63,819 nt of DNA, filler included, from Theionarchaea archaeon (GCA_018992565.1; 3 parts of 3 records of this genome joined end to end with filler, not necessarily neighbours in it), one strand, 5' to 3'; shown: positions 1,632-63,819, numbered from the whole stretch's first letter. Notes: generated by a model not told the origin, from the sequence alone. Numbers and translations: made by a program.

Positions 1632-2069
1632 ATGATGATATCAAGAAAAGTAGAGAAAATCTGCATAATCTGGCTGATATTTGTGGGACTTGTGGCAACT
1701 GGATGTATTGGCCAGAAGCCTGAGACCCTCATAGAAGGAGAAGAATCTCAAGAATGGTTTACCAGAGCAGGGCCCATGGCAGAAAACATTCTCACCTCCG
1801 TAGAGACTGGCGATTATCAATCGTTCATAAGAGATTTCTCAGAACAGATGGTCAAGGAAATACCAGAAAAGGAGTTTCTGGAAGTGAAAGAGAAATTATA
1901 TTCCCAAGCGGGTGCTTATCAATCCCTCAGTACCTGGAAAACTACAGAGCAAGGAGATTATGTTATCGTGTATTTCACGGCACACTATGAAAAGGAAGAC
2001 GTGACGGTAAAGCTCGTATACAGGAAGGGAGACACAGCCTACAAAATCGAGGGATTGTGGTTTGCCTGA
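1632..2069 (+). CDS. Lipoprotein, DUF3887-like
   Basis: GAGGAG RBS, hydrophobic signal with lipobox-like VATGC, and DUF3887-like C-terminus (KIEGLWF). Confidence 0.7.
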   Translation: MMISRKVEKICIIWLIFVGLVATGCIGQKPETLIEGEESQEWFTRAGPMAENILTSVETGDYQSFIRDFSEQMVKEIPEKEFLEVKEKLYSQAGAYQSLSTWKTTEQGDYVIVYFTAHYEKEDVTVKLVYRKGDTAYKIEGLWFA

Positions 2070-2192
2070 AAGCAGGTTAGCTTTCCCTTTGGCCATATAA
2101 GATACCGATCCATAGTGAGACCAGAAGGAGAGCCTTCAACTGATCAACTAGTGGCCCTAGTCATACTGACCCAACTATTGCCCACGTAACCC

Positions 2193-4724
2193 TCACAAGA
2201 CACAAAACTCCCTCTCCAGCCTGCTGAACTCAATATGAGTCAGCGTATCTTTGAAAAGAGGAACAATCAATATTGAATTGCTGGTCACGATAATGTCTTT
2301 TAAGGCCTGCAAATACTTGAGGAGGGTTTCAAAACTTGTCTGCGTTGCCAGATATTCAGCGCCGTCAAATAATATCACAGATTCCTCAGTTCTCTCCACA
2401 AACCCTCGAAGTATATAGTTCAATTTGGAGAGGTCATTGGGACTCATGGCACTGGGATCTTCTGATTGCGACAGCCAAAAGATGGGAGTCTTGGTCAGTC
2501 CGTGGTTTCTCCTGAGCTTCTGGGGATGTTCCCTGGAGATTATGAATCCAGGCACTCCGTGCGTAACTAACTCAATGAAGATCTCCAGAGACTTCTGGGG
2601 CTTGCTCTCCAGCACAATATACCCTTCAGAATTCTCCACGTTGTGTGTCCTCTTGGTTTTCAGCTGGTTTTCTGCAACAGGTTCAACCAGAATTCTCGTT
2701 CTGTCAATAAANNNNNNNNNNNNNNNNNNNNNNNNNNNNNNNNNNNNNNNNNNNNNNNNNNNNNNNNNNNNNNNNNNNNNNNNNNNNNNNNNNNNNNNNN
2801 NNNNNNNNNNNCCCAGGTTCACCATACTTTCCACAATAGTTCGCATCCCTTTCTCCCAGTTCCTCTCACTCTGAAGGTTCTGTCGCGTGTCCAGGAGTAT
2901 CTCTATTCTCTTTGACCTCTTCTGGATTCTCAATTCCAGCTCCCGATTCAATGATTTCACTTCATCATATAATCGTGAATTCCTGACAGCTGAAGAGATC
3001 ACTTCACTCAAGGGTCTGAGCACCTCGATATCCTTTTGATCATACGCACCTTCCACCGATTTCGAGATATGTAATGCTCCCACGCATTTCTTTTCCACTA
3101 TCAGAGGGACCAGTATCTGGGATACACACACTTCCGTCCCGGGAATCCACTTCCCCCTCTCGTCTGTGCCTGCATTGTCCAGGAGCAAGATACTCTGAGT
3201 TTCAATGGAGTGCCCCACCAGCCCTTCTCCACTTTTCAGAATTGCACCTCTCATAGCTTCTCGAAGTCCCTTAGAAACATATGCTGGGTATATCTCCTTT
3301 CTGTCATCAGAGACCAGGAAGATAATAAAATTGTCAAATCCAATTAAATCTTGAACGGAATCAGATACAAATTTATATATTTCCTGTATATCCATGGAAG
3401 AATTCAGCAGCTTGCTAGCTTCAAAAAGACTTCTGAGCTGCTTCTCAGCTCGCTTGAGTTCCGTAATATCAGTGAGAATTCCTTCAAGATACTTCACCCG
3501 GGAATTCTCGTCCTTGACAAGGCGCCCGCTCTCAAGTACTGTTATTTGATGCCCGTTCCTGCACTTCAGAACGAGCTCAACATTTCTCACAAGTCCCTCT
3601 CTTTCCAGTCTTTCAATATTCTTCTCTCTCTGGTCAGGGTCCACGTACAGATCAGTAGCAATATTCAGGCCCAGAAGCTCTGCTTCAGATTCATATCCGA
3701 GCATTTGTACAAGAGCAGGATTCGCACTGAGAAGTCTTCCATCAGGAGTTGTCTGATATATCCCCTCAAGTACATTTTCAAAAAACTCTCTCAATCTCTT
3801 TTCGGAAGCACGCAGCTCTTCCTCTGCCTTTTTGCGGTCTGTGATGTCTCGAGTTGTGGCAATGAAGCCCACTGGTTCTCCCTTTGGACTCTTGATGACT
3901 GAAGCATTGAGTTCCCCTATGAAGTACGATCCATCTCTTCTCACGCAGGCATACTCTAAGTCTTTCACAGATCCTTCTTTCAAGGCATTCTGAAAGTTCT
4001 CTTTCGCTCTCCGACGATCACTGGATGCAACAAGTTCGAAAACACTTCTTCCCAGCAGATCGTGGATGTTCTCAACTTTATACTGCTCCAAAGTACGAGA
4101 AGAAACGAAGGTAATCTTTCCCTCGAGGTCAGTTGCAGTAATCGCCTCTGGAGAGGTATCAACCAATGTTCTGTATATTTCTTGAATTCCCTTTTGTTCT
4201 TCAAACAAGTTCGCAGTTTCCAGAGCAATTGAGGCATAAAATGCCAGAATCTCAAGAAGTGTCTTGTCCCCTTCAGAGAAGGCATTCACCTTCTTGCTTT
4301 CAGCATCCAGAACACCAAGAGTCTTGTCCATGATCTTCAAAGGTACACAGAGTTCTGACCTCGCATTTTTCAACCCCAGGATATATCTCTTATCTTTTCT
4401 CACGTCTCCTATGTTTAGAGGACTCTGAGTTCTGGCAACATACGCAGTAATTCCTTTCACACCATCAAGGGGGATTACTGTCTCCATCTCAGGTTCCTTG
4501 AGACCTCTGCATTCAAAGAGATAAAGTTCACGTTTCTTCTCATCCACCAGGTACAGGTCAATATTTCCGAAATTGAGGACCTTTTCTGCCGCATCCAGAA
4601 CAGCATGACATATGAGGTCCTTATCCAGTGCCAAGGCAATTTCCTTGGAAAGACTGTGGAGAGCTGAAAGTTTTTCCTCATAACTGATTGTTTCTTCTTT
4701 CTTTTCGTGTTCTTCTTCATGCAT
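2193..4724 (-). CDS. GAF-PAS-PAS-GAF sensor with C-terminal DUF835 (inactive KaiC-like ATPase) domain; spans an N gap
   Basis: GAF motifs (RSELCVPLKI..LGVLDAES, FSEGD), PAS/PAC motifs (RDITDRKKAEE, DITELKRAE) and DUF835-type ISREHP..IFWLS..ILFDGAEYL. Whether both sides of the gap 2712-2811 are one gene is unproven. Confidence 0.8.
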   Translation of the reverse strand: MHEEEHEKKEETISYEEKLSALHSLSKEIALALDKDLICHAVLDAAEKVLNFGNIDLYLVDEKKRELYLFECRGLKEPEMETVIPLDGVKGITAYVARTQSPLNIGDVRKDKRYILGLKNARSELCVPLKIMDKTLGVLDAESKKVNAFSEGDKTLLEILAFYASIALETANLFEEQKGIQEIYRTLVDTSPEAITATDLEGKITFVSSRTLEQYKVENIHDLLGRSVFELVASSDRRRAKENFQNALKEGSVKDLEYACVRRDGSYFIGELNASVIKSPKGEPVGFIATTRDITDRKKAEEELRASEKRLREFFENVLEGIYQTTPDGRLLSANPALVQMLGYESEAELLGLNIATDLYVDPDQREKNIERLEREGLVRNVELVLKCRNGHQITVLESGRLVKDENSRVKYLEGILTDITELKRAEKQLRSLFEASKLLNSSMDIQEIYKFVSDSVQDLIGFDNFIIFLVSDDRKEIYPAYVSKGLREAMRGAILKSGEGLVGHSIETQSILLLDNAGTDERGKWIPGTEVCVSQILVPLIVEKKCVGALHISKSVEGAYDQKDIEVLRPLSEVISSAVRNSRLYDEVKSLNRELELRIQKRSKRIEILLDTRQNLQSERNWEKGMRTIVESMVNLXXXXXXXXXXXXXXXXXXXXXXXXXXXXXXXXXXFIDRTRILVEPVAENQLKTKRTHNVENSEGYIVLESKPQKSLEIFIELVTHGVPGFIISREHPQKLRRNHGLTKTPIFWLSQSEDPSAMSPNDLSKLNYILRGFVERTEESVILFDGAEYLATQTSFETLLKYLQALKDIIVTSNSILIVPLFKDTLTHIEFSRLEREFCVL

Positions 4725-5144: not shown

Positions 5145-5597
5145 TTCATTTGCATCCCTGCTGCTGCCTTATATATGTATTTGTGCACCTTTCACACGAA
5201 ATCACACACTATCTCACGTTTTTTCAGGAATCGCCAGATCATTTTGGCATGTTTGCACTTGCGCTTCATATCAGTTGCCTATTAATTGAAAAGACTCACT
5301 ATTACAATGCAAACAGGGATGTTATCTATCATTACTGTCCTTTTCATTCAATTTCCCCCTCCCATCTGTACAAAGCCACGCACCAACGCCACTCCAGAAC
5401 CAGGAGACTGCGCAGCACTGGGCGTCCTGAAACGTGACGTTTTTTCGTCCAGAAATTCTAGTTCATTGGATTCTCCACCTCCAAAATGAGATGCAATCTG
5501 AAAAGAGGGATATCATAGGGAGGACGAGTCCATGGTAAGCATCGTGACTGCAAATGGAGACCAACAGATTTATAGCTTTCATCACTTTACAGCACAC

Positions 5598-5870
5598 ATG
5601 ATGTGGATTGTACTCATCCTCGTGATTGTGCTCCTGATAGCAGGTGTCATCACCTTCTGGATAGACCGTAAGAACAAGCAGTCGGAAGAAACAAGAGAAC
5701 GCGGCAAATGGTCTATCGGCATGGGGTTAGGAGGAGCTTTCGGGGCAGTCATTGGAATACTGCTGGTGGAATATGGTGGTTATTCATACCCCCTTCCAGT
5801 TATCTTGTGGATGATGGGAATGGCAGCAGGTCAGGTGGTGGGAATCGTATACAGCAGGTATCGCAGGTGA
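5598..5870 (+). CDS. Small membrane protein (3 TM)
   Basis: Three hydrophobic, Gly-rich segments. TTTATAG box about 25 nt upstream of the ATG. Confidence 0.65.
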   Translation: MMWIVLILVIVLLIAGVITFWIDRKNKQSEETRERGKWSIGMGLGGAFGAVIGILLVEYGGYSYPLPVILWMMGMAAGQVVGIVYSRYRR

Positions 5871-22077: not shown

Positions 22078-22177
22078 NNNNNNNNNNNNNNNNNNNNNNN
22101 NNNNNNNNNNNNNNNNNNNNNTTAATTAATTAANNNNNNNNNNNNNNNNNNNNNNNNNNNNNNNNNNNNNNNNNNNN
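22078..22177. other. Artificial scaffold linker (N...TTAATTAATTAA...N)
   Basis: Six-frame-stop 12-mer at 22122-22133 inside Ns. Confidence 0.95.
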
Positions 22178-43917: not shown

Positions 43918-44017
43918 NNNNNNNNNNNNNNNNNNNNNNNNNNNNNNNNNNNNNNNNNNNNTTAATTAATTAANNNNNNNNNNNNNNNNNNNNNNNNNNN
44001 NNNNNNNNNNNNNNNNN
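43918..44017. other. Artificial scaffold linker (N...TTAATTAATTAA...N)
   Basis: Six-frame-stop 12-mer at 43962-43973. Confidence 0.95.
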
Positions 44018-54520: not shown

Positions 54521-55780
54521 CTAGAGCTCCTTCCACTTAGTGATCTTCACTGCAATAACCATCATCACTGCTGCAAAGCATCCCAGCACCACAAACGCCA
54601 TACCTGCATTTCCGGGGTTCTCATACACCATGATCTGAAGCAGCCCATCGTGGAAGTAGTGAAGAGGAAGCACCCTGGCAACTTCCTGTAAATATCCCGG
54701 CATCTGTTCAATAGGCCAGAAGGCACCAGACAAGAACATCATGGGAAAAGCAATTGCATTGCCCGCGCCCGAAGCAGCTTCCACATCCTTAATCACACCT
54801 CCCAGAACCATACCCACACTGCAGAACGCCACAGCACCCACGAGAATTAACAACAACGCATATGCGTCAGGTATGAGCCTCACATCAAAAATAATCCAGC
54901 CCAGAGCAATCATCACTCCAGTCAGAATAAACGCCAGCACTGTCTGTTCCAGCACATTTGCGAGGATCCAGCTGATCTTGGGCAAAGGAGTTGTAGCCAG
55001 CCGTTTCACCTGACCGTTTCTCCGGTATTCAGAGATTGTGGTGGTGGCCCCAATGATCCCATTGGTCATGATAAAGGCAGCGATAAATCCGGGTAGAAAA
55101 TAGTCCACTACCTTCATCGTCCTCTGCTCCAGCGGCATTCCCTCAATTGTAAGGACTTCCTCACTTCCCACCAGCCCATTACTGAAAGCATTTGCCACCC
55201 CGTGTATGATTCCCAATAAAGCAGGGGCTGCCATGTCCTGTTCATCCATTAGCAATACCAGCTGAGGACTCTCTCCTCCTTGACTGCCCAGCATAGTCTG
55301 AAGCGCCAGTTCACCTCTCTGTATCCCTTCAATATCCTCAGGGCTCATGTATGCTGCAAACTCTTCTCCCACAACCTCAAGCGTACTCACTGTTACCTTG
55401 ACCTTAACAGACACCGTCTTTTCAGCCGCCTGTTCATGGAACCCTTTTGGGATCATGAGAATTCTGTATCTGAACGAAAAAGAAGGATTCAACCTCACAT
55501 ATTCCTTAATATCCACATCATGCTCCAGGCTCCTTACATCAAAAGCACCAGTTGCCTTCAAAGCCTCCACGAATCCCTGAGACAATTCAGTGGGATTATC
55601 GTTGCTATCCACGTCCAGGTTCTGAACAAAGAGCACATACTGGCTGTTCCCTCCTCCGCCAAATACAGTACTAAAAATGATCAGCAGCATTATGGGAAAC
55701 AGGAACGAAAAGAATATACCTGCCTTGCTCCTCATCCAGCTTTTTAACAAAGCAGAAAACACTGCCATGACTCCTCTCAT
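54521..55780 (-). CDS. ABC-2 type exporter permease
   Basis: FFSFLFP, DYFLPG, KRLATTP, FLSGAFWP. Confidence 0.93.
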   Translation of the reverse strand: MRGVMAVFSALLKSWMRSKAGIFFSFLFPIMLLIIFSTVFGGGGNSQYVLFVQNLDVDSNDNPTELSQGFVEALKATGAFDVRSLEHDVDIKEYVRLNPSFSFRYRILMIPKGFHEQAAEKTVSVKVKVTVSTLEVVGEEFAAYMSPEDIEGIQRGELALQTMLGSQGGESPQLVLLMDEQDMAAPALLGIIHGVANAFSNGLVGSEEVLTIEGMPLEQRTMKVVDYFLPGFIAAFIMTNGIIGATTTISEYRRNGQVKRLATTPLPKISWILANVLEQTVLAFILTGVMIALGWIIFDVRLIPDAYALLLILVGAVAFCSVGMVLGGVIKDVEAASGAGNAIAFPMMFLSGAFWPIEQMPGYLQEVARVLPLHYFHDGLLQIMVYENPGNAGMAFVVLGCFAAVMMVIAVKITKWKEL

Positions 55781-56700
55781 ATTAATTCACCTCGCTCATC
55801 AACCCGTCCGCCTGCAAGCCGGGAGAACACATTGTCCATACTGGGCTCAACAATATCCAAGCGATATTTCTCATCCAGCTGGTACAGGGCGGCCAGAGTT
55901 TTTGCCACCTGAGTCCTCTCTTGGAAAACACCCTCCATGGCGCTGTCTTCTGTGATAACTCTCTGTGCAGTCTCCATTAGAATCGTCTCTATTTCCTCAT
56001 TGCAGGGCGATACTCTGATCCTGATTCCTCCACCATATGCAGAAATCAATTCGTCAATGCTCCCCTGGGCAATAATCTCGCCACCAAACATAACTGCCGC
56101 CCGATCACTCAACTGCTCCACTTCTTCCATATAGTGGGATGTCAACACCACCGTCTTCCCCATGCTCTTCAACCGTCTGATGACCTCCCACGTTTCCTTT
56201 CTGGCTTGAGGATCCAATCCGGTGGTAGGTTCATCCAGGAATAGGAGGACAGGGTCATTGATTAATGCCATACAGATACCTACTCGTCTTTTCATTCCTC
56301 CAGATAACGACTCAAAGTGTCGGTCTCTGGCCTCCCACATTCCCAGTTCCTCAAGGACACTGCGCAGATCAGGGTTCACCTGATAGATGCTGGCGATCAA
56401 TTCCACATTCTCTCTCACAGTCAATCTCTCAAAAGCATTGAAGTCCTGGGGCATGACCCCGATCCTCTTCTTGATTTCATCCTCTTCCCGGGTGACATCA
56501 TATCCCAGAACGGAGGCTTTTCCACTGGTGGGTGCCCTCAAACACTCCAGAATTTCCACAGTAGTAGTCTTGCCTGCTCCATTAGGTCCCACAAGAGAGA
56601 AAATCTCTCCCTTATTGACGGTGAATGAAACGTCATGTACTGCTATGACTGGTTTGTATTTCTTTACCAGGTTCTCAACGCATATGACTTCTTCAGACAT
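55777..56700 (-). CDS. ABC exporter ATP-binding protein
   Basis: GPNGAGKTT, LSGG, FLDEPT, TSH. Confidence 0.96.
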   Translation of the reverse strand: MSEEVICVENLVKKYKPVIAVHDVSFTVNKGEIFSLVGPNGAGKTTTVEILECLRAPTSGKASVLGYDVTREEDEIKKRIGVMPQDFNAFERLTVRENVELIASIYQVNPDLRSVLEELGMWEARDRHFESLSGGMKRRVGICMALINDPVLLFLDEPTTGLDPQARKETWEVIRRLKSMGKTVVLTSHYMEEVEQLSDRAAVMFGGEIIAQGSIDELISAYGGGIRIRVSPCNEEIETILMETAQRVITEDSAMEGVFQERTQVAKTLAALYQLDEKYRLDIVEPSMDNVFSRLAGGRVDERGELI

Positions 56701-57117: not shown

Positions 57118-58254
57118 ATGGATGAACCTGCTTCTTTCGTTGAAGCACCTGGCTCGGATATTTCTGGACATCCTTTCACCATGCAGTTTGAAATCACAAG
57201 CAGGTGCAACCTGAGATGTACTCACTGCTATGATGAATCTGAGTCCCATAAGGACATGCCGCTTTCCCAGGTCAAGAGCGTCATAGAAAGGTTGCTGGGC
57301 TTCTGCAGGCGGTGGAAGAGGACACCCATTTTGTGGCTCACTGGAGGTGAACCCACACTCCATCATCACTTCTGGCAGATACTTGATTATATTGAGACCC
57401 AGAAATCAGGTACTCAAGTTGCCCTCCTGTCCAATGGAATCAACCTTACCAGTGACATGGTAGATGCTCTAACGGATTATCCAGCCCTGCAGTACATACA
57501 GATCAGTATTGATGGGGCCTGTGCTGAAACCCATGATGCTATCAGAGGTACAGGTTCATTTGACAAAGCCACAGAAGCCCTGAAACTACTTGCATCAACC
57601 CCTATAGAAACCCATATCCACTATGTGGTGCACAAGAAAAACTACCACGATGCATTCAAGATGACTGATCTTGCAAGGGTGTTGCAGGCAGATGTCCTGA
57701 CTGTCACCAGGCTTGTTCCCTGGGGAAGGGGAAAGGACCTCTTTCAGCACATGCTGAGCCCAGAGCAGGTTTACACTCTTTTCAGGAAGTTGAGTGACGA
57801 TTTTGATGCCATATCCTCTGAGAGCCCACCAAGGCCCCATATTGCACGCAGTCGATGTGACTGGCCTGTGATTTATTCCGACCCATCCACTCCTGAAGCA
57901 CTTACTAAGAACGGATCGAGATGCTGCGCAATCCATTCTTACATTAATGTCACAGAGACCGGAGACGTCTATCCCTGCCGGAGATTGCCCATCACAATAG
58001 GTAACATCTTGACCCAGGACCTTTCACAGATCTGGCAACATCCCCTGTTGTGGAAACTCCGTCAGAAAGACAAATTCGTCCAGGGCAAGTGCAGGGATTG
58101 TTACTTCTGTGTAAAAGCTCCTGAGGTGTGCAGTGGCGGTGCATCCTGCATTGCATATGCAGTGTACAATGATCCTTTCCAACCAGACCCACAGTGTCCT
58201 GTAACGCCATCTGAAGGACCTGCAAGTCTCGGCAGCGTATCAGGAGATCCATGA
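57118..58254 (+). CDS. Radical SAM/SPASM protein (paralog A)
   Basis: CNLRCTHC, TGGEP, SPASM C..GDVYPC..CRDC..CSGGASC..DPQC. Confidence 0.95.
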   Translation: MDEPASFVEAPGSDISGHPFTMQFEITSRCNLRCTHCYDESESHKDMPLSQVKSVIERLLGFCRRWKRTPILWLTGGEPTLHHHFWQILDYIETQKSGTQVALLSNGINLTSDMVDALTDYPALQYIQISIDGACAETHDAIRGTGSFDKATEALKLLASTPIETHIHYVVHKKNYHDAFKMTDLARVLQADVLTVTRLVPWGRGKDLFQHMLSPEQVYTLFRKLSDDFDAISSESPPRPHIARSRCDWPVIYSDPSTPEALTKNGSRCCAIHSYINVTETGDVYPCRRLPITIGNILTQDLSQIWQHPLLWKLRQKDKFVQGKCRDCYFCVKAPEVCSGGASCIAYAVYNDPFQPDPQCPVTPSEGPASLGSVSGDP

Positions 58255-58278
58255 GCACTCCATCCAAGAAAGGTCACG

Positions 58279-59667
58279 TTATTTCTGTAATTCGAGAATT
58301 TTCCTGACGAAAAATGGTACTCCATACGAAACAAAAGCCTTATAATTGTCACAATCAGCCCTGTAGATGTCTCCATGTTCCAAATACGCCCTGTAGGCAC
58401 AGCCTCCCCCACATAACAGTGCCAGTTCACATTCTCTGCACTCTGGAATGGACAAAACATCACGGTTGAACCACTGGTGATACTTTTCGTTGAACTCCAG
58501 CTGGGGTACAAATCGTCCTATTGAGAACTCAGTGTCTCCCACAGCTCTGGGACAGGAATAGATGTCCCCAAATAAATCAAATCCAAACCCCTTACAATGT
58601 GCAGAGCAGTAGAATGGGCGTGGGACAATATCCTCCCCTGTAGTCAGGGCATGGGATAGGAACCCCTTTTTCATGTACGTCCATTCATACAGCATCACCT
58701 CGAACACCCGTGGCTCTTTCTCTCTCAAATCGAGAATCCTCCTTGCCATCTCAGTGTAGGAAAGAAAGGAAGGAGAACTCATGCCTTTCCCCTCAAGAAC
58801 AAGGGCGATGGAGAACGTGATGTTGTCACGGTGTGCCCATCCGTGGGAAGTTATCCATTCAGCAAATTTCGGGAGATGTGAGAGGTTGTCTTCATCTACA
58901 TTGACTCTCACTCCTATTCGAATGCCTGCATCGAGGGCTTCCTCAATTCCCCTGACGATGTTGTCAAATGTTCCACTCCCATCTTTTTTTCTGCGCCTTT
59001 GATCATGCACCTCTTTGCATCCATCAAGTGTAACGCCCAGTCCGGTAACCTCATGTGAAGAAAGGAGTGGCACAAACTGCTCCAGGAAGTATCCATTGGT
59101 ATTTGCATGGAAGGTATAGTCCTTCTTATCTCCGTGATCAAGTATGTATTGTACTATAGACAATGTTGAAGGCAAGAATGGTTCTCCACCATAGAGAGAA
59201 AGCAGAGTGACACCTTCTAGTTCAGGTATGTTCTCAATGGCGCGAAAAGCAGCATTTACAGTTTTTTCATCAATTACAGCATTCATCCACTTTGCGCCTC
59301 TCGAGAGGAGATGATCAGTCCAGCAGTAGGTGCAGCGCATGTTACACTGGTAGGTTACACTAATGGAAGCAGTCGGCTCTCCTGAAGCCTTCTGGGCATT
59401 GTATTTTTCCATTAGAAGTTCCTTTTCCTCCAGTTCTGTCAGTGAGGTAATGAATCCATATTCTTTCAGTAATGAGAGGGTTGAGGGAGTCCCACAAGGA
59501 AAGGATGCGAGAGTGCTGTATTCTTTCTCCTCCAGTATTGCCACTTTCCCACTGAGAGGATTACAGATAAGATAGAGTGGATCTTCTGACGCGGTAATTT
59601 CAGAGGAAAGAGGAATAACAACATTGTGACTGCTAGTCCTAGCCATGGAGATGTCTTTCACCTTCAA
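58279..59667 (-). CDS. Radical SAM/SPASM peptide maturase with N-terminal RRE-like region
   Basis: N-terminal YLICNPLSGKVAIL..LKEYGFI, CNMRCTYC, YGGEP, SPASM YC..GDIYSC..CRECELALLCGGGC..C. Confidence 0.93.
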   Translation of the reverse strand: MKVKDISMARTSSHNVVIPLSSEITASEDPLYLICNPLSGKVAILEEKEYSTLASFPCGTPSTLSLLKEYGFITSLTELEEKELLMEKYNAQKASGEPTASISVTYQCNMRCTYCWTDHLLSRGAKWMNAVIDEKTVNAAFRAIENIPELEGVTLLSLYGGEPFLPSTLSIVQYILDHGDKKDYTFHANTNGYFLEQFVPLLSSHEVTGLGVTLDGCKEVHDQRRRKKDGSGTFDNIVRGIEEALDAGIRIGVRVNVDEDNLSHLPKFAEWITSHGWAHRDNITFSIALVLEGKGMSSPSFLSYTEMARRILDLREKEPRVFEVMLYEWTYMKKGFLSHALTTGEDIVPRPFYCSAHCKGFGFDLFGDIYSCPRAVGDTEFSIGRFVPQLEFNEKYHQWFNRDVLSIPECRECELALLCGGGCAYRAYLEHGDIYRADCDNYKAFVSYGVPFFVRKILELQK

Positions 59668-59910
59668 CAGATCACCTTGCAGGTACGGATATGACTATGA
59701 GGTACTGTGTACATGGAATATTTAAGTATTAGCATTGACGAGAGTGCCGCTTGTGATCGCAGACACGTGCATTGCACATTTCATTTGAGGACGACTACCT
59801 TCTCATGCGCTGAAATAAGTGAGAAAAGCTTTCCGAATATCATTGGAAAAAGAGAACGCCAGCGTTGTTCGAGAAGGTATTGTTTGTAAATCTTCCTCAG
59901 TCTGAAACCA

Positions 59911-59922
59911 AAAGATTTATAT
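59911..59922 (+). promoter_or_regulatory. BRE/TATA for the candidate precursor gene
   Basis: AAAGATTTATAT, the same motif seen at the promoters near 42777 and 46229. Confidence 0.6.
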
Positions 59923-59957
59923 GGTTGTTGAGTACATATAAGACAGAAACAGAGGAG

Positions 59958-60113
59958 GTGAGATGTACGCACGTAATACCCAAGGTCTGGAAAGGAATTG
60001 TCGTCACCACGGGTGAAGTACAAACCAATGCCGTTATTCAGAACCCACGCGGTTACTGCTGTGGCGGCTGTGGTAGCGGCTGCAGTTTTGCTGGTGCAAC
60101 TGGATGTAAGTAA
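59958..60113 (+). CDS. Candidate RiPP precursor peptide (~48-51 aa) with Cys/Gly-rich core
   Basis: (M)RCTHVIPKVWKGIVVTTGEVQTNAVIQNPRGYCCGGCGSGCSFAGATGCK; own TATA and GGAGGTGA element; flanked by rSAM/SPASM genes. Start codon ambiguous. Confidence 0.75.
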   Translation: MRCTHVIPKVWKGIVVTTGEVQTNAVIQNPRGYCCGGCGSGCSFAGATGCK

Positions 60114-60386
60114 CGACAGCTGAGCGGTATCCAGTTGACGTTGGTAGAGAAGAAATGGAACCTACACTCTAATGGAGAGACTACTCCATGTAGCAGGTTC
60201 TGCTTCAGCTTAGGGGAACTTCTGGAGGGAAAATCCTCCCGGAATGATGCCACGTTAATGGGTATTTGATCCCTAACTTCGAATGGTAGTCTAACAAAGG
60301 TTCCAGAGGAGGACTCTGAACACTGATGTAGTGGACAATTCGAGTCTTCTAAAGGGGGAATTCATAGAGGTCTTCAGACGAGCTAT

Positions 60387-61025
60387 TCATTTCCTCCGTG
60401 AGGCCAGTACTCTGATCAAGTCGTGTGCATGGGGGTCGCCGTGTGTAACATCCTCTTGCCGGAACCTTTCTATTTCTTCCAGATACATAGGGGCCAAGAG
60501 GTCCTCCAACTCATTCATGGTATAGTAGTGAAGGCAGAGCCCATCAGGATGTCTGACATTGTGATTTCCCATAGGTGTTCCTCCTGTCATTCCTTCATCA
60601 TCATCAGATAAAACCATGAAGAGCATAATACCGTCTTTCTCAACTACTCTGAAAATCTCCGAAAACGCGTGCTTTCTCTCAGGTTCATCGATGAAGAAAT
60701 TCATCATCATGAGACTGGTGGCAGCCCCAAAGCTTTCATCACGGAACGGAAGGAAGAGAGCATCTGCACAGACGACATCCATGTGACCGCGGATGAGGAT
60801 CCTTGAGGCTTCCTTGAGGTATTGAACAGCTTCTGAGGAATAGTCCGCACAGGTTACTCTGAATCCAAGCTGGGCGAGACTCCTGGAAGAGGAACCGTAG
60901 CCACTCCCTATATCCAGGATTGTGCTAATGCTGTTTTCAAGCAGTCTTCGTAGAAACCGCATATCGACTCCTGGCTCCTCTTTCTTGAGTGTGCTCAGCC
61001 AGTGATCCCAGTACGTCCGGGTCAT
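60387..61025 (-). CDS. Class I SAM-dependent methyltransferase
   Basis: ILDIGSGYG, ADYS, ADALFLPFRDESF. Confidence 0.92.
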   Translation of the reverse strand: MTRTYWDHWLSTLKKEEPGVDMRFLRRLLENSISTILDIGSGYGSSSRSLAQLGFRVTCADYSSEAVQYLKEASRILIRGHMDVVCADALFLPFRDESFGAATSLMMMNFFIDEPERKHAFSEIFRVVEKDGIMLFMVLSDDDEGMTGGTPMGNHNVRHPDGLCLHYYTMNELEDLLAPMYLEEIERFRQEDVTHGDPHAHDLIRVLASRRK

Positions 61026-61164
61026 AAAGAATCTACTTCAGGGCACTTAATAAACATAATGAAATGATCTCGCAAGAGCCTTCTACCCCTTCGTCTTCAG
61101 CAGAAAGGGCATTTAGAACCAAACGTTTTTATTCATTCTTTTAGATACCCTTTCAGGTGATACC

Positions 61165-61614
61165 ATGGAACCTCATGACCTNNNNNNNNNNNNNNNNNNN
61201 NNNNNNNNNNNNNNNNNNNNNNNNNNNNNNNNNNNNNNNNNNNNNNNNNNNNNNNNNNNNNNNNNNNNNNNNNNNNNNNNNGTAACCTCCATGATACAGA
61301 GCCTCTCTCAAGATGGGTTTCTGGTCCTGCATGAGACTCCCACTGTGGTGGATTTGGATCTTGAAGGGACTGCTTTCCCCTGGCGCAGCGACGATGCTAT
61401 CGCCAACGTAGTGGAAGACAACTTCGTGATCATGAATATGCTCACCAGTGAAGCTTTTTCTTTCGAAAGAGATGTTGAGACTCTATGGAATATTTGTGAT
61501 GGTCATCATGCTGTAGATGACATTCTATCTGCCGCTGCAAGTACTGCTGACGTTGAATATCTCATCAAGTTTCTTCTTAAGCTGGGATTGATTGAACTGA
61601 GACCCGCTGAATAG
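61165..61614 (+). CDS. PqqD/RRE-domain protein (spans an N gap)
   Basis: VVEDNFVIMNMLTSEAFSF..LWNICDGHHAVDDIL..FLLKLGLIE. A preceding LSQDGFL segment suggests a tandem RRE. Confidence 0.75.
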   Translation: MEPHDXXXXXXXXXXXXXXXXXXXXXXXXXXXXXXXXXXVTSMIQSLSQDGFLVLHETPTVVDLDLEGTAFPWRSDDAIANVVEDNFVIMNMLTSEAFSFERDVETLWNICDGHHAVDDILSAAASTADVEYLIKFLLKLGLIELRPAE

Positions 61615-61624
61615 AGATGATGGC

Positions 61625-62740
61625 ATGAATGATTCATCTTCTCCACAAGAGGTTCACCCCCAAGGAGGTGAATACTATCATCAGTTCTCTCTTCAATTTG
61701 AGATTACGGGCAGATGCAACCTGAGATGTCTCCATTGCTATGATGAATCTGAACCCCACAGGGATATGTCACTTTCTAAGGTTAAGACCGTGATTGACAA
61801 GTTTCTTGCATTTTGCTGGAGATGGAAGAGGCTTCCTGCTCTGTGGCTCACTGGAGGTGAACCCACACTGCATCCTCACTTCTGGGAGATTCTGGACTAC
61901 ATACAGGAGCATATGCCTGAGGGGTACGTGGCAATTCTCACCAATGGAGTTGTCGTGACGGAGGAATTTGTGAAGAATCTCCAGACATATGATATGAGTA
62001 CCTGTGTGCAGATCAGCATTGATGGGGCCTGTGCTGAAACCCACGATGCTATCAGAGGCACAGGTTCATTTGACAAAGCTACAGAAGCCCTGAAACTACT
62101 TGCATCAACCCCTATAGAGACCCATATCCACTATGTGGTGCATAAGAAAAACTACCACGATGCATTCAAGATGACTGATGTAGCTCGTATCATGGGGGCA
62201 GATGTCCTGACTGTCAGCCGGCTTGTCCCGTTGGGAAGAGGGGAGGCATTGGTTGATGCCATGCTGAGTCCTGAGCAAATCAAGATCCTCTACCGAAAAT
62301 TGAGTGATGACCTGGATTGTATCCTGATGCAGAACCCTCCAAAACCCTATATCGCACGCCATCGATGTGATTGGCCTGTCATCTACTCTGACTCCTCCAG
62401 TCCTGAAGCACTTGCTAAGAATGGGCATGCCTGTGCGGCAGGGCAGTCTTACATTAATGTCATGGAAACAGGAGATGTCTGTGCATGCAGGCGAATGCCC
62501 ATCCGTGTGGGGAATATCTTTGAAGAAGATTTCATGCAGATCTGGCAGCACCCCCTGTTATGGAAGCTCCGTCAGAAGCGATTATTCGTCCAGGGTAAAT
62601 GCAGGGATTGTTTCTTCAGCATGAATGCTCCCAGTATCTGCAACGGAGGTGCATCCTGCATTGCGTATGCCGTATACAATGATCCTTTCCAGCCAGACCC
62701 ACAGTGTGCAGTTCAACCCTCATCATCGGGAGGTGAATAA
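61625..62740 (+). CDS. Radical SAM/SPASM protein (paralog B)
   Basis: CNLRCLHC, TGGEP, SPASM C..GDVCAC..CRDC..CNGGASC..DPQC; close paralog of 57118-58254. Confidence 0.95.
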   Translation: MNDSSSPQEVHPQGGEYYHQFSLQFEITGRCNLRCLHCYDESEPHRDMSLSKVKTVIDKFLAFCWRWKRLPALWLTGGEPTLHPHFWEILDYIQEHMPEGYVAILTNGVVVTEEFVKNLQTYDMSTCVQISIDGACAETHDAIRGTGSFDKATEALKLLASTPIETHIHYVVHKKNYHDAFKMTDVARIMGADVLTVSRLVPLGRGEALVDAMLSPEQIKILYRKLSDDLDCILMQNPPKPYIARHRCDWPVIYSDSSSPEALAKNGHACAAGQSYINVMETGDVCACRRMPIRVGNIFEEDFMQIWQHPLLWKLRQKRLFVQGKCRDCFFSMNAPSICNGGASCIAYAVYNDPFQPDPQCAVQPSSSGGE

Positions 62741-63367
62741 ATGGAAGTACGTCATGCAATACAAGAGAGAAGAAGTATCAGGAGGTTTAAATCGGATGCC
62801 GTCCCTGTTGCAGATATTGAGAAAATGGTATATGCTGCCTCCCTGGCACCCAGTGGAGGGAATATGCAACCATGGCAATTTCTGGCTATTACCAACAAGG
62901 AATGCAGAGACGCTCTGGCCCGGATCATCCATGATGAGGGCGTGAAGTTCTCTCATGATATGGGCCAGGCAATGCCGCACTTCATTGTAACATCTCTGGT
63001 CTTTACCACAGCGCCCCTGGTCTTTGCAGTCATGATGACGCCCTTCCCACTGGAAGAAGACAGCTGGTTTCAGGCATTCAGGAAACGCAAAAACCTTGAG
63101 GGACGCAGCATTGACAGGTATGGCGGGTTTGTCAGCGTGATGGGAGTAGCAGCAGCCATTGAGAATCTATTGCTGACAGCTTATGACCTCGGGTATGGTT
63201 CATGCTGGGTTCGTATTCCATACTATGCCAAGGATGCGCTGGAGAGGTTTCTTAACATTGAAGCTCCTCGAGAACTTGTAGCATTACTACCTGTAGGCAT
63301 TGCAGATACCAATCCTAGAATGCCTCCCAGGAAGCCTATTCAGGATATTTTCGCCCTGGTAGAGTAG
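62741..63367 (+). CDS. Nitroreductase-family flavoprotein
   Basis: RRSIRRF, APSGGNMQPWQF, ENLLLTAYDLGYGSCW; GGAGGTGA RBS; abuts the rSAM B stop. Confidence 0.93.
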   Translation: MEVRHAIQERRSIRRFKSDAVPVADIEKMVYAASLAPSGGNMQPWQFLAITNKECRDALARIIHDEGVKFSHDMGQAMPHFIVTSLVFTTAPLVFAVMMTPFPLEEDSWFQAFRKRKNLEGRSIDRYGGFVSVMGVAAAIENLLLTAYDLGYGSCWVRIPYYAKDALERFLNIEAPRELVALLPVGIADTNPRMPPRKPIQDIFALVE

Positions 63368-63399
63368 GGTATCATTGCCGCTGTTCTGCTCTTTGCGGA

Positions 63400-63819
63400 T
63401 CATTCTTCCTGTAGGGCTCTCAGCCTGTATGGGATATACGTACTGAGGATTCGAGGATAGTCTTCACAAATACCATTGAAAAGAGATCCGCGTTCCAGAC
63501 TCTCTGCAGGGCAGCCCCCTCTACAAATCAGGGCATACTCACATTCCATGCATGAAGGTATATTGAGAACTGTGCGGGACTTCAATATACCAAGTTGATT
63601 CTCATTTGCTGAATACTCTGGGAAGAACCTGCCAATGGGATATGAATTCATTCGTATGCAGGGATATATCAGTCCATCCGGGCTGAAAAAGAAATTCCTA
63701 TCCAGCCTGCATCTATATCTCGATATTTCTGGTGTCTTCCCTGAAAGAATATCGTCAAAATATTCTGATCCAGGAAAAAACACATCAAAGTATGATAGAA
63801 GGTTGTGCCTCTCCAGCAT
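63400..63819 (-). CDS. Radical SAM/SPASM protein, C-terminal part (truncated at window edge)
   Basis: C..PDGLIYPC..IGRFFP..CMECEYALICRGGC..C; resembles the 58279-59667 SPASM domain. Confidence 0.85.
   Translation of the reverse strand: MLERHNLLSYFDVFFPGSEYFDDILSGKTPEISRYRCRLDRNFFFSPDGLIYPCIRMNSYPIGRFFPEYSANENQLGILKSRTVLNIPSCMECEYALICRGGCPAESLERGSLFNGICEDYPRILSTYIPYRLRALQEE

Follow-up and report, generated by a model that had tools for sequence, protein, structure and literature searches.

A probable radical SAM peptide-maturation cluster

Positions 57118-63819 of a 63,819-nucleotide stretch of DNA from a Theionarchaea archaeon (GCA_018992565.1), hereafter called the window, carry a cluster of radical S-adenosylmethionine (SAM) genes that probably directs the production of a peptide made by ribosomes and modified after translation (RiPP). 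More precisely, with a rough probability of 0.6, the cluster acts by thioether-type maturation of the product of a small open reading frame (ORF) at 59958-60113. It comprises four radical SAM/SPASM enzymes of two types (A1 and A2, B1 and the truncated B2), a PqqD-family protein, a nitroreductase-fold flavoprotein, a class I SAM-dependent methyltransferase, and the small Cys/Gly-rich ORF. A first-pass annotation had listed all of these genes, and each was recovered at its coordinates by ORF reading and by Pfam and NCBIfam models, with families assigned against curated cut-offs. It had also proposed a thioether-type RiPP pathway. Peptide maturation is well supported by the evidence given below, but the word thioether comes solely from the likeness to two enzymes, CteB and CrpC, and the central ORF is a weak match to its presumed family.

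The B-type enzymes

CteB is the thioether-forming ranthipeptide maturase of Clostridium thermocellum, whose substrate is the SCIFF peptide CteA and whose structure is known (PDB 5WGG/5WHY). B1 (58279-59667, minus strand) resembles it in several respects. The gene encodes 462 residues from TTG 59667, or 455 from the Met seven codons further in that is used by a public gene call, and the protein matches the Radical_SAM model of Pfam with 63.9 bits and carries about 100 extra residues at its N-terminus. In an alignment of 18 B-type sequences, the invariant Cys residues are C108, C112, and C115 of the CX3CX2C motif, together with C354, C372, C410, C413, C419, C423, and C439; B1 thus has both the radical SAM motif and the 7-Cys SPASM domain of ranthipeptide maturases. 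Its best solved relatives by sequence are CteB (E 2.5e-21) and anSME. An AlphaFold2 model of B1 (pLDDT 91.2) shows three strands and three helices at residues 16-95, and its top Foldseek match is again CteB (E 1.1e-21). The model superposes on CteB 5WGG with Z 26.4 and a root-mean-square deviation of 4.4 over 397 aligned residues, model residues 12-457 falling on chain residues 1-450. The superposition includes the RiPP recognition element (RRE) domain of CteB, in agreement with the RRE-like region that the first-pass annotation had seen at the N-terminus of B1. The alignment with anSME (Z 26.1) begins only at residue 96, and TigE is matched with Z 21.4. As modeled, B1 is a three-domain enzyme of the CteB type, with an N-terminal RRE, a radical SAM core, and a SPASM domain.

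B2 (63400-63819, minus strand) is cut by the end of the contig, and only its C-terminal 139 residues, the SPASM part, are visible. This fragment matches TIGR04085 with 45.0 bits (cut-off 27) and, over 102 residues, shares 37% identity with the C-terminus of B1, which fits the earlier placing of the two genes in a second enzyme type. No fitting B-type match for its missing half was found by tblastn on the other contigs of the genome. The pathway proposed below gives both B-type enzymes a CteB-like build with an N-terminal RRE of their own, B2 being seen only in its C-terminal part.

Among NCBIfam models, the best for B1 are TIGR04463 (124.0 bits, cut-off 525), CefB (118.1), PapB (NF047865; 117.9, cut-off 340), and then the geopeptide maturase. 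The SCIFF maturase model, TIGR03974, gives 86.3 bits (cut-off 425).

The A-type enzymes and their partners

A1 (57118-58254, plus strand, 378 residues) and A2 (61625-62740, plus strand, 371 residues) are over the Pfam cut-offs for both Radical_SAM (80.5 and 82.1 bits) and SPASM (42.2 and 37.0 bits). They are 72% identical over 348 residues, and are indeed the close paralogs that had been described at 57118 and 61625. Both are devoid of an N-terminal peptide-binding domain. Beyond the CX3CX2C motif, eight Cys residues of A1 are invariant across 17 relatives. The best NCBIfam model for each is rSAM_ACGX (TIGR04340; 165.2 bits for A1 and 158.5 for A2, cut-off 400), accompanied by TIGR04053 (162.5 for A1, cut-off 395), AhbD (155.7 and 147.7, cut-off 500), MftC (TIGR03962; 129.8 and 142.9, cut-off 265), and SbtM, also under its cut-off. 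The PqqE model (TIGR02109) scores 84.0 bits with A1 and 65.9 with A2 (cut-off 381). Ten more distant A-type relatives from bacteria and archaea are likewise under every cut-off, with the ACGX model on top in nine. The solved structures nearest to the A-type profile by sequence are SkfB, CteB, and PqqE.

A2 lies in a tight array. It starts 10 nucleotides after the stop codon of the PqqD gene (61165-61614, plus strand), and the nitroreductase gene (62741-63367, plus strand, 208 residues; PF00881, 109.3 bits) begins at the base following the A2 stop, without any spacer, just as the first-pass annotation had it abutting this paralog. The PqqD gene contains the reported run of 100 N (61182-61281). 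Contigs of two independent DNA runs bridge it with 250 letters, giving 17, 250, and 333 nucleotides that make up 200 codons in frame, so that the true gene is 600 nucleotides long and encodes 199 residues. The visible C-terminal part reaches only 15.0 bits with PF05402 (cut-off 23.4), the N-terminal domain being in the gap. A 200-residue ortholog, 45% identical to the visible part, scores 52.9 bits, and all five paralogs of the same genome (203-231 residues) carry PF05402 in their N-terminal half, over the cut-off (39.8-76.3 bits). The visible fragment is the second, C-terminal domain of a two-domain protein, which explains its weak score and agrees with the stand-alone PqqD/RRE-like protein called earlier. 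In two proteins from Theionarchaea MAGs (metagenome-assembled genomes), P0043 and P0044, a PqqD domain is naturally fused to the N-terminus of an A-type enzyme, giving chains of about 600 residues.

The best PDB sequence match of the nitroreductase is the BluB-like flavoprotein 3EO8 (E 1.3e-23), with other nitroreductase-fold flavoproteins also close. The methyltransferase (60387-61025, minus strand, 212 residues) matches PF08241 with 67.2 bits and PF13649 with 62.1 bits. Both proteins are well over their Pfam cut-offs, in line with their earlier assignments, and the methyltransferase has no NCBIfam model over cut-off. No YcaO gene was found by a Pfam scan of the visible cluster.

The candidate precursor peptide

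The central Cys/Gly-rich ORF, noted earlier as encoding about 50 residues, ends at 60113 on the plus strand and comprises 51 codons from GTG 59958, or 82 from TTG 59865. Its core, GYCCGGCGSGCSFAGATGCK, lies at the end of the product, and a possible archaeal TATA box (TTTATAT, 59916-59922, plus strand), read from the sequence, stands about 40 nucleotides upstream. Within the 719 nucleotides that separate B1 from the methyltransferase gene, it is the sole candidate found by a Cys-count screen and by peptide-profile searches. Its composition is unusual: at least 5 Cys and at least 4 Gly within 20 residues occur in 16 of the 31,738 small ORFs of the genome, this one included, although the test was devised post hoc. 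The sequence is unchanged in contigs of three independent DNA runs. A contig from an RNA library (metatranscriptome, run X20) spans 60005-60218, i.e. the 3' two thirds of the ORF; DNA can occur in RNA libraries, and this contig is a weak hint of expression, while parts of the stretch not covered by contigs of that run do not count as silence. The peptide has no match in Pfam, nor in NCBIfam at E values up to 10.

The interest of this ORF comes from the small ORFs found beside paralogs of the enzymes. They share a leader, M-K-x-x-x-L/V-N-K-K-L-W-T-D, followed by a Cys/Gly-rich core. Six clear members of this LNKKLW family are present in the genome, all on other contigs, with profile scores of 44-85 bits, and all six have GGTGA 4-6 nucleotides ahead of the start codon. 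When the 31,738 small ORFs of the genome were all searched with a profile, these alone were returned. One clear member lies 1.6 kb from a B1 paralog (54% identical) on contig C29. Against 5.8 billion public proteins, the profile recovers 13 clusters, all unnamed or labeled 'hypothetical protein', the named ones coming from Theionarchaea or Methanofastidiosia MAGs. Two of 34 genomes of the order have a match, that of the window and one of the same genus; a missing match in an incomplete genome does not prove absence. With NCBIfam, the SCIFF model included, five of the six clear members are unmatched at E values up to 10 and the sixth has only a chance match to rumA (E 0.27). The LNKKLW family is absent from the family libraries searched.

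Residue 11 of the window peptide is Trp, in common with the LNKKLW family, and its CGG/CGSGC core is similar too. From its sequence, it may be a divergent member, an assignment that is statistically unproven. That it is the substrate of the enzymes is likely but unproven. A complex prediction for B1 (18-row alignment) with the peptide (7-row alignment) scored 0.02 against a mark of 0.32, was run without controls, and counts neither way. A second ORF of the same gap (60135-60269, 44 codons, TTG start), with 'EKKW' near its N-terminus and two Cys, was considered as another precursor and rejected, as it has neither a ribosome-binding site nor a profile match at E values up to 10. A sigma-70 promoter scan of 59600-60450 gave no sites, with a pattern that is not applicable to archaea.

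Paralogous and homologous loci

The genome (2.80 Mb, 154 contigs, 88% completeness) is rich in radical SAM/SPASM genes, and the names attached to its closest homologs assign it to the Theionarchaea / Methanofastidiosia. Searches by tblastn with A1, A2, and B1 found paralogs on dozens of contigs, and the SPASM model of Pfam is over its cut-off at 30 places, B1 being missed. Close paralogs of both types form an island on contig C13 with two A-type genes, six B-type genes, a methyltransferase gene, two PqqD genes, and a nitroreductase gene whose product is 63% identical to that of the window. They are clustered on C30 as well, and B-type and PqqD genes on C29, C62, and C97.

Three further loci are informative. 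At the metagenome locus L113, found again as L114-L116, one strand carries an A-type gene followed by a nitroreductase gene, and the opposite strand has genes for a methyltransferase, two B-type enzymes, a two-domain PqqD, and a family peptide of 54 residues, after which come another SPASM protein and a B12 radical SAM enzyme. The enzyme set is the same at L026, which belongs to a Theionarchaea MAG; a family peptide was looked for beside it and none was detected. L110, again a metagenome locus, encodes the closest relative of A1 and A2 (66% identical), the PqqD ortholog mentioned above, a nitroreductase, and a methyltransferase, and it repeats the order PqqD, A, nitroreductase of the window. 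The nitroreductase gene is directly downstream of the A-type gene in L110, L113, and L026, and a methyltransferase gene is present in these three loci and in C13. The set of A-type enzyme with nitroreductase, methyltransferase, two B-type enzymes, and PqqD is thus found in L113, L026, and C13, with an adjacent family peptide in L113 and C13. The first-pass annotation had held that homologous loci lacking a conserved small peptide would speak against a RiPP system; such loci do carry one, the peptides at L113 and C13 being of the conserved family, and this outcome favors the RiPP reading. The genome holds several paralogous sets, of which the cluster is one: a further and divergent copy of a recurrent, lineage-specific system.

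Other features of these loci are worth recording. Two paralogs of about 320 residues, 53% identical and each with an N-terminal winged-helix DNA-binding domain, are encoded in the C13 island and may regulate the cluster; one lies inside the island (L003, G000:C13, 9476-10447, minus strand), the other at the right edge (L004, 851-1816, plus strand). At L011 (G000:C128), two tandem B-type genes have directly upstream of them a 58-codon ORF (5549-5725, minus strand) with CALEVQPTF repeated exactly four times at its end, which has the look of a precursor with several cores from a different family. At L014 (G000:C154), a 38-codon ORF with four Cys (3190-3306, plus strand; …GSWCCKICHPYV) overlaps by a few bases the start of a radical SAM gene, which is followed by a second one, and is a further candidate precursor.

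Proposed pathway and competing explanations

Whereas gene content, homologies, and conservation are matters of observation, each chemical step of the following scheme is inferred. The N-terminal leader of the peptide, through its Lys-x-Trp region, would be held by the RRE domains of the B-type enzymes and by PqqD. The B-type enzymes would link core cysteines to other residues via thioether bridges, with a loss of 2 Da for each. The A-type enzyme, which has no RRE and would depend on PqqD, would introduce another radical modification, to be further oxidized or reduced by the flavoprotein, and the methyltransferase would add methyl groups to the peptide. Finally, removal of the leader would fall to a protease whose gene lies elsewhere, and the neighboring ABC-2 transporter may serve for export of the product.

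Several observations weigh against this scheme. Some concern the enzymes. None of the radical SAM enzymes reaches a curated family cut-off of NCBIfam, so that their chemistry is assigned by analogy only, and the catalytic part of B1 is nearly as close to anSME as to CteB (Z 26.1 vs 26.4). Others concern the peptide. A leave-one-out family profile gives it 12.0 bits (E 0.26), which ranks it eighth among the 31,738 small ORFs, below one chance ORF, and BLASTP with the most similar family member, the peptide at 38944 on C13, yields no alignment. The start region is anomalous: GGAGGTGA overlaps the in-frame GTG 59958, unlike the well-placed GGTGA of the six clear members, and the out-of-frame ATG 59963 behind it opens a frame of only 17 codons (59963-60016) that overlaps the start of the precursor. 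A frameshift error at ATG 59963 was considered and rejected, since contigs of three independent runs show the same sequence with no indel there; the oddity is therefore not an assembly error. The core is also poor in the Asp, Asn, and Thr acceptors typical of ranthipeptides. The remaining points concern the gene content: no protease gene is present in the visible cluster, the ABC permease/ATPase pair beside the cluster was not seen in L110, L113, or L026, and the cluster is cut at 63819, beyond which a second precursor is possible.

The most serious competitor, although an improbable one, keeps the leader-guided logic and changes the chemistry. PqqD, A, and nitroreductase would act like MftB-MftC-MftD or PqqD-PqqE, yielding a small redox-active or metal-binding product, or C-C or other cross-links. 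An apparent operon with a chaperone, a SPASM enzyme, and a flavoenzyme does mirror the mycofactocin genes, the alignment of A2 with the MftC model is end to end (residues 22-364 against model positions 13-334 of 339), both A-type enzymes align with PqqE, and the natural PqqD-A fusions point the same way. Cys/Gly cores would suit metal binding, and SPASM enzymes of CteB-like fold are also known to make cyclopropylglycine (TigE) and C-C links (SuiB). However, the MftC and PqqE scores are far below the respective cut-offs, the window peptide has neither the C-terminal Val-Tyr of MftA nor the Glu/Tyr pair of PqqA, the fold of the flavoprotein is that of nitroreductases and not of the MftD type, and the nearest characterized relatives of the B-type enzymes are thioether formers.

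A more speculative and rather unlikely idea starts from the same three genes. PqqD, A, and nitroreductase might form a self-contained conserved module that installs on Cys/Gly cores a modification new to peptides, for example a heterocycle or an unsaturated cross-link made without YcaO, and Theionarchaea, with dozens of SPASM enzymes in less than 3 Mb, might use such peptides for metal or sulfur handling and not as antibiotics.

Less probable still is that the enzymes are genuine peptide maturases but the ORF at 59958-60113 is decayed or a chance ORF, the true precursor lying past the contig end or elsewhere in the genome. The weak leave-one-out score, the BLASTP result, and the start region all fit such a view, as do the six clear family members on other contigs, the continuation of the cluster for at least 891 nucleotides past 63819, and the full enzyme set of L026 with no family peptide detected alongside. 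It has to contend with a 719-nucleotide gap in which the two screens found no other candidate, with a Trp 11 and a CGG/CGSGC core that agree with the family in a kind of ORF that is rare in the genome, and with the identity of the sequence in three independent assemblies, to which the RNA-library contig adds its weak hint.

Finally, service of the radical SAM enzymes in cofactor or protein maturation, for example in heme- or siroheme-type tetrapyrrole chemistry (AhbD, NirJ) or formylglycine formation (anSME), is very improbable: A1, A2, and B1 do have matches to these models and the B1 catalytic core is structurally close to anSME, but the enzymes fall outside the cofactor-biosynthesis and anSME families, a test that the first-pass annotation had set for itself, with all scores far under cut-off (AhbD as given above; NirJ 125.2 bits for A1 and 119.1 for A2 vs 515; anSME, TIGR03942, 68.1 for A1, 64.8 for A2, and 75.8 for B1 vs 349), the AhbD matches are general superfamily matches since none of the 85 stretches matched in the genome is over the cut-off, B1 has an RRE domain that anSME lacks, and the enzymes occur together with PqqD genes and conserved small peptides.

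Setting of the cluster and neighboring genes

The window consists of three contigs of the MAG joined by N spacers (44N-12-44N) at 22078-22177 and 43918-44017, and genes on either side of a spacer have no shown adjacency. The whole cluster is on a single contig, C140 (44018-63819), whose end is the end of the window; the cluster does run off this edge, as had been reported, and a contig of another run (X4) supplies 891 nucleotides past 63819. Near-identical DNA for 57118-61181 was found in 19 runs from seven studies, with metagenomes of marine sediment, estuary, mangrove, soil, and sediment; one of these runs may be the source.

A tract of A1 (57499-57665, plus strand) is about 96% identical at the DNA level to 62009-62175 of A2. 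In 30-nucleotide windows, the in-register sliding identity is 0.93-1.00 within the tract and mostly 0.3-0.9 in the rest of the gene, and this difference makes gene conversion between the paralogs, over some 165 nucleotides, the likely origin of the tract as judged from sequence. Logan contigs of other runs break exactly there, so contiguity across the tract rests on the scaffold of the MAG.

Upstream of the cluster, C140 carries ordinary genes, encoding a class I tRNA ligase, an S-layer protein, a pyridoxal phosphate enzyme, a GNAT protein, and TrkH/TrkA. Next to the cluster lie the genes of an ABC-2 type transporter permease (54521-55780, minus strand, 419 residues; PF12698, 141.4 bits; PF01061, 100.3 bits) and, overlapping it by four bases, of an ABC transporter ATPase (55777-56700, minus strand, 307 residues; PF00005, 120.4 bits). 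The best NCBIfam model of the ATPase is the DrrA-type TIGR01188 (264.8 bits, cut-off 312). This transporter may be the exporter of the product, but its membership in the cluster is uncertain. As for proteolysis, L110 encodes a 692-residue subtilase (Peptidase_S8; 1811-3889, plus strand) upstream of PqqD, A, and nitroreductase; it is a possible leader protease and has no counterpart in the visible cluster of the window.

Comparison with known systems

Peptides modified by radical SAM enzymes are well known in bacteria and hardly studied in archaea. The kind of pathway proposed here is thus a known one, and its combination of enzyme set and peptide family is in no paper or family library searched. 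Full-text searches returned no paper describing this system; Theionarchaea appear in passages of two papers (PMC9635834, PMC9258230), where they are mentioned only in other contexts. The earlier suggestion of a combination not described before therefore stands as far as these sources go, but the cluster is not unique, being one copy of a system that recurs within the lineage. This lineage-restricted system joins two types of SPASM enzymes with a PqqD chaperone, a flavoprotein, and a methyltransferase. Should its chemistry be elucidated, new cross-linking enzymes could result, as could an explanation for the large number of radical SAM/SPASM genes retained in the small genome of a sediment archaeon.

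The A-type enzymes are most like those of the ACGX system (TIGR04340, a 'hypothetical equivalog'), which is the top model for both A1 and A2 over their full length and whose partner peptides are also Cys/Gly repeats. The two enzymes are nevertheless under the cut-off, the peptides have no meaningful match to any NCBIfam model, and the ACGX system is itself uncharacterized; among the matches listed by a full-text search, none was on the ACGX radical SAM system.

With the mycofactocin and PQQ pathways, the cluster shares a stand-alone PqqD-family chaperone encoded directly upstream of an RRE-less SPASM enzyme, with a flavoenzyme next. It differs from them in that PqqD has two domains (about 200 residues), the flavoenzyme has the nitroreductase fold, and the Cys/Gly-rich precursor is devoid of the residues modified in those pathways.

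For B1, the nearest curated family is TIGR04463 (aligned to B1 from residue 32, with the N-terminal domain included). In a 2026 report, experiments showed that one of its members, CrpC from Methanococcus voltae, introduces ranthionine thioethers into a Cys-rich protein (PMC13692751). No other archaeal SPASM thioether enzyme came up in the literature searched, and B1 shares with it the archaeal SPASM type, the predicted RRE, and a Cys-rich substrate, for B1 a candidate one (PMC13692751). By contrast, B1 is far under the cut-off of the family. The substrate CrpA contains ten repeats of 17 residues and has a size of about 29 kDa, compared with the 51-residue candidate here, and the immediate cluster, as described there, consists of CrpA, CrpB, and CrpC only, without A-type enzyme, PqqD, nitroreductase, or methyltransferase (PMC13692751).

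Lastly, B1 shares with CteB the succession of RRE, radical SAM core, and 7-Cys SPASM domain, and with the CteA system a Cys-rich substrate, here a candidate one. The identity is about 19%, the score with the SCIFF maturase model is far from its cut-off, and the peptide is unmatched by the SCIFF model. Moreover, the CteB system relies on one enzyme, whereas the cluster described here brings together two B-type and two A-type enzymes with PqqD, a nitroreductase, and a methyltransferase.

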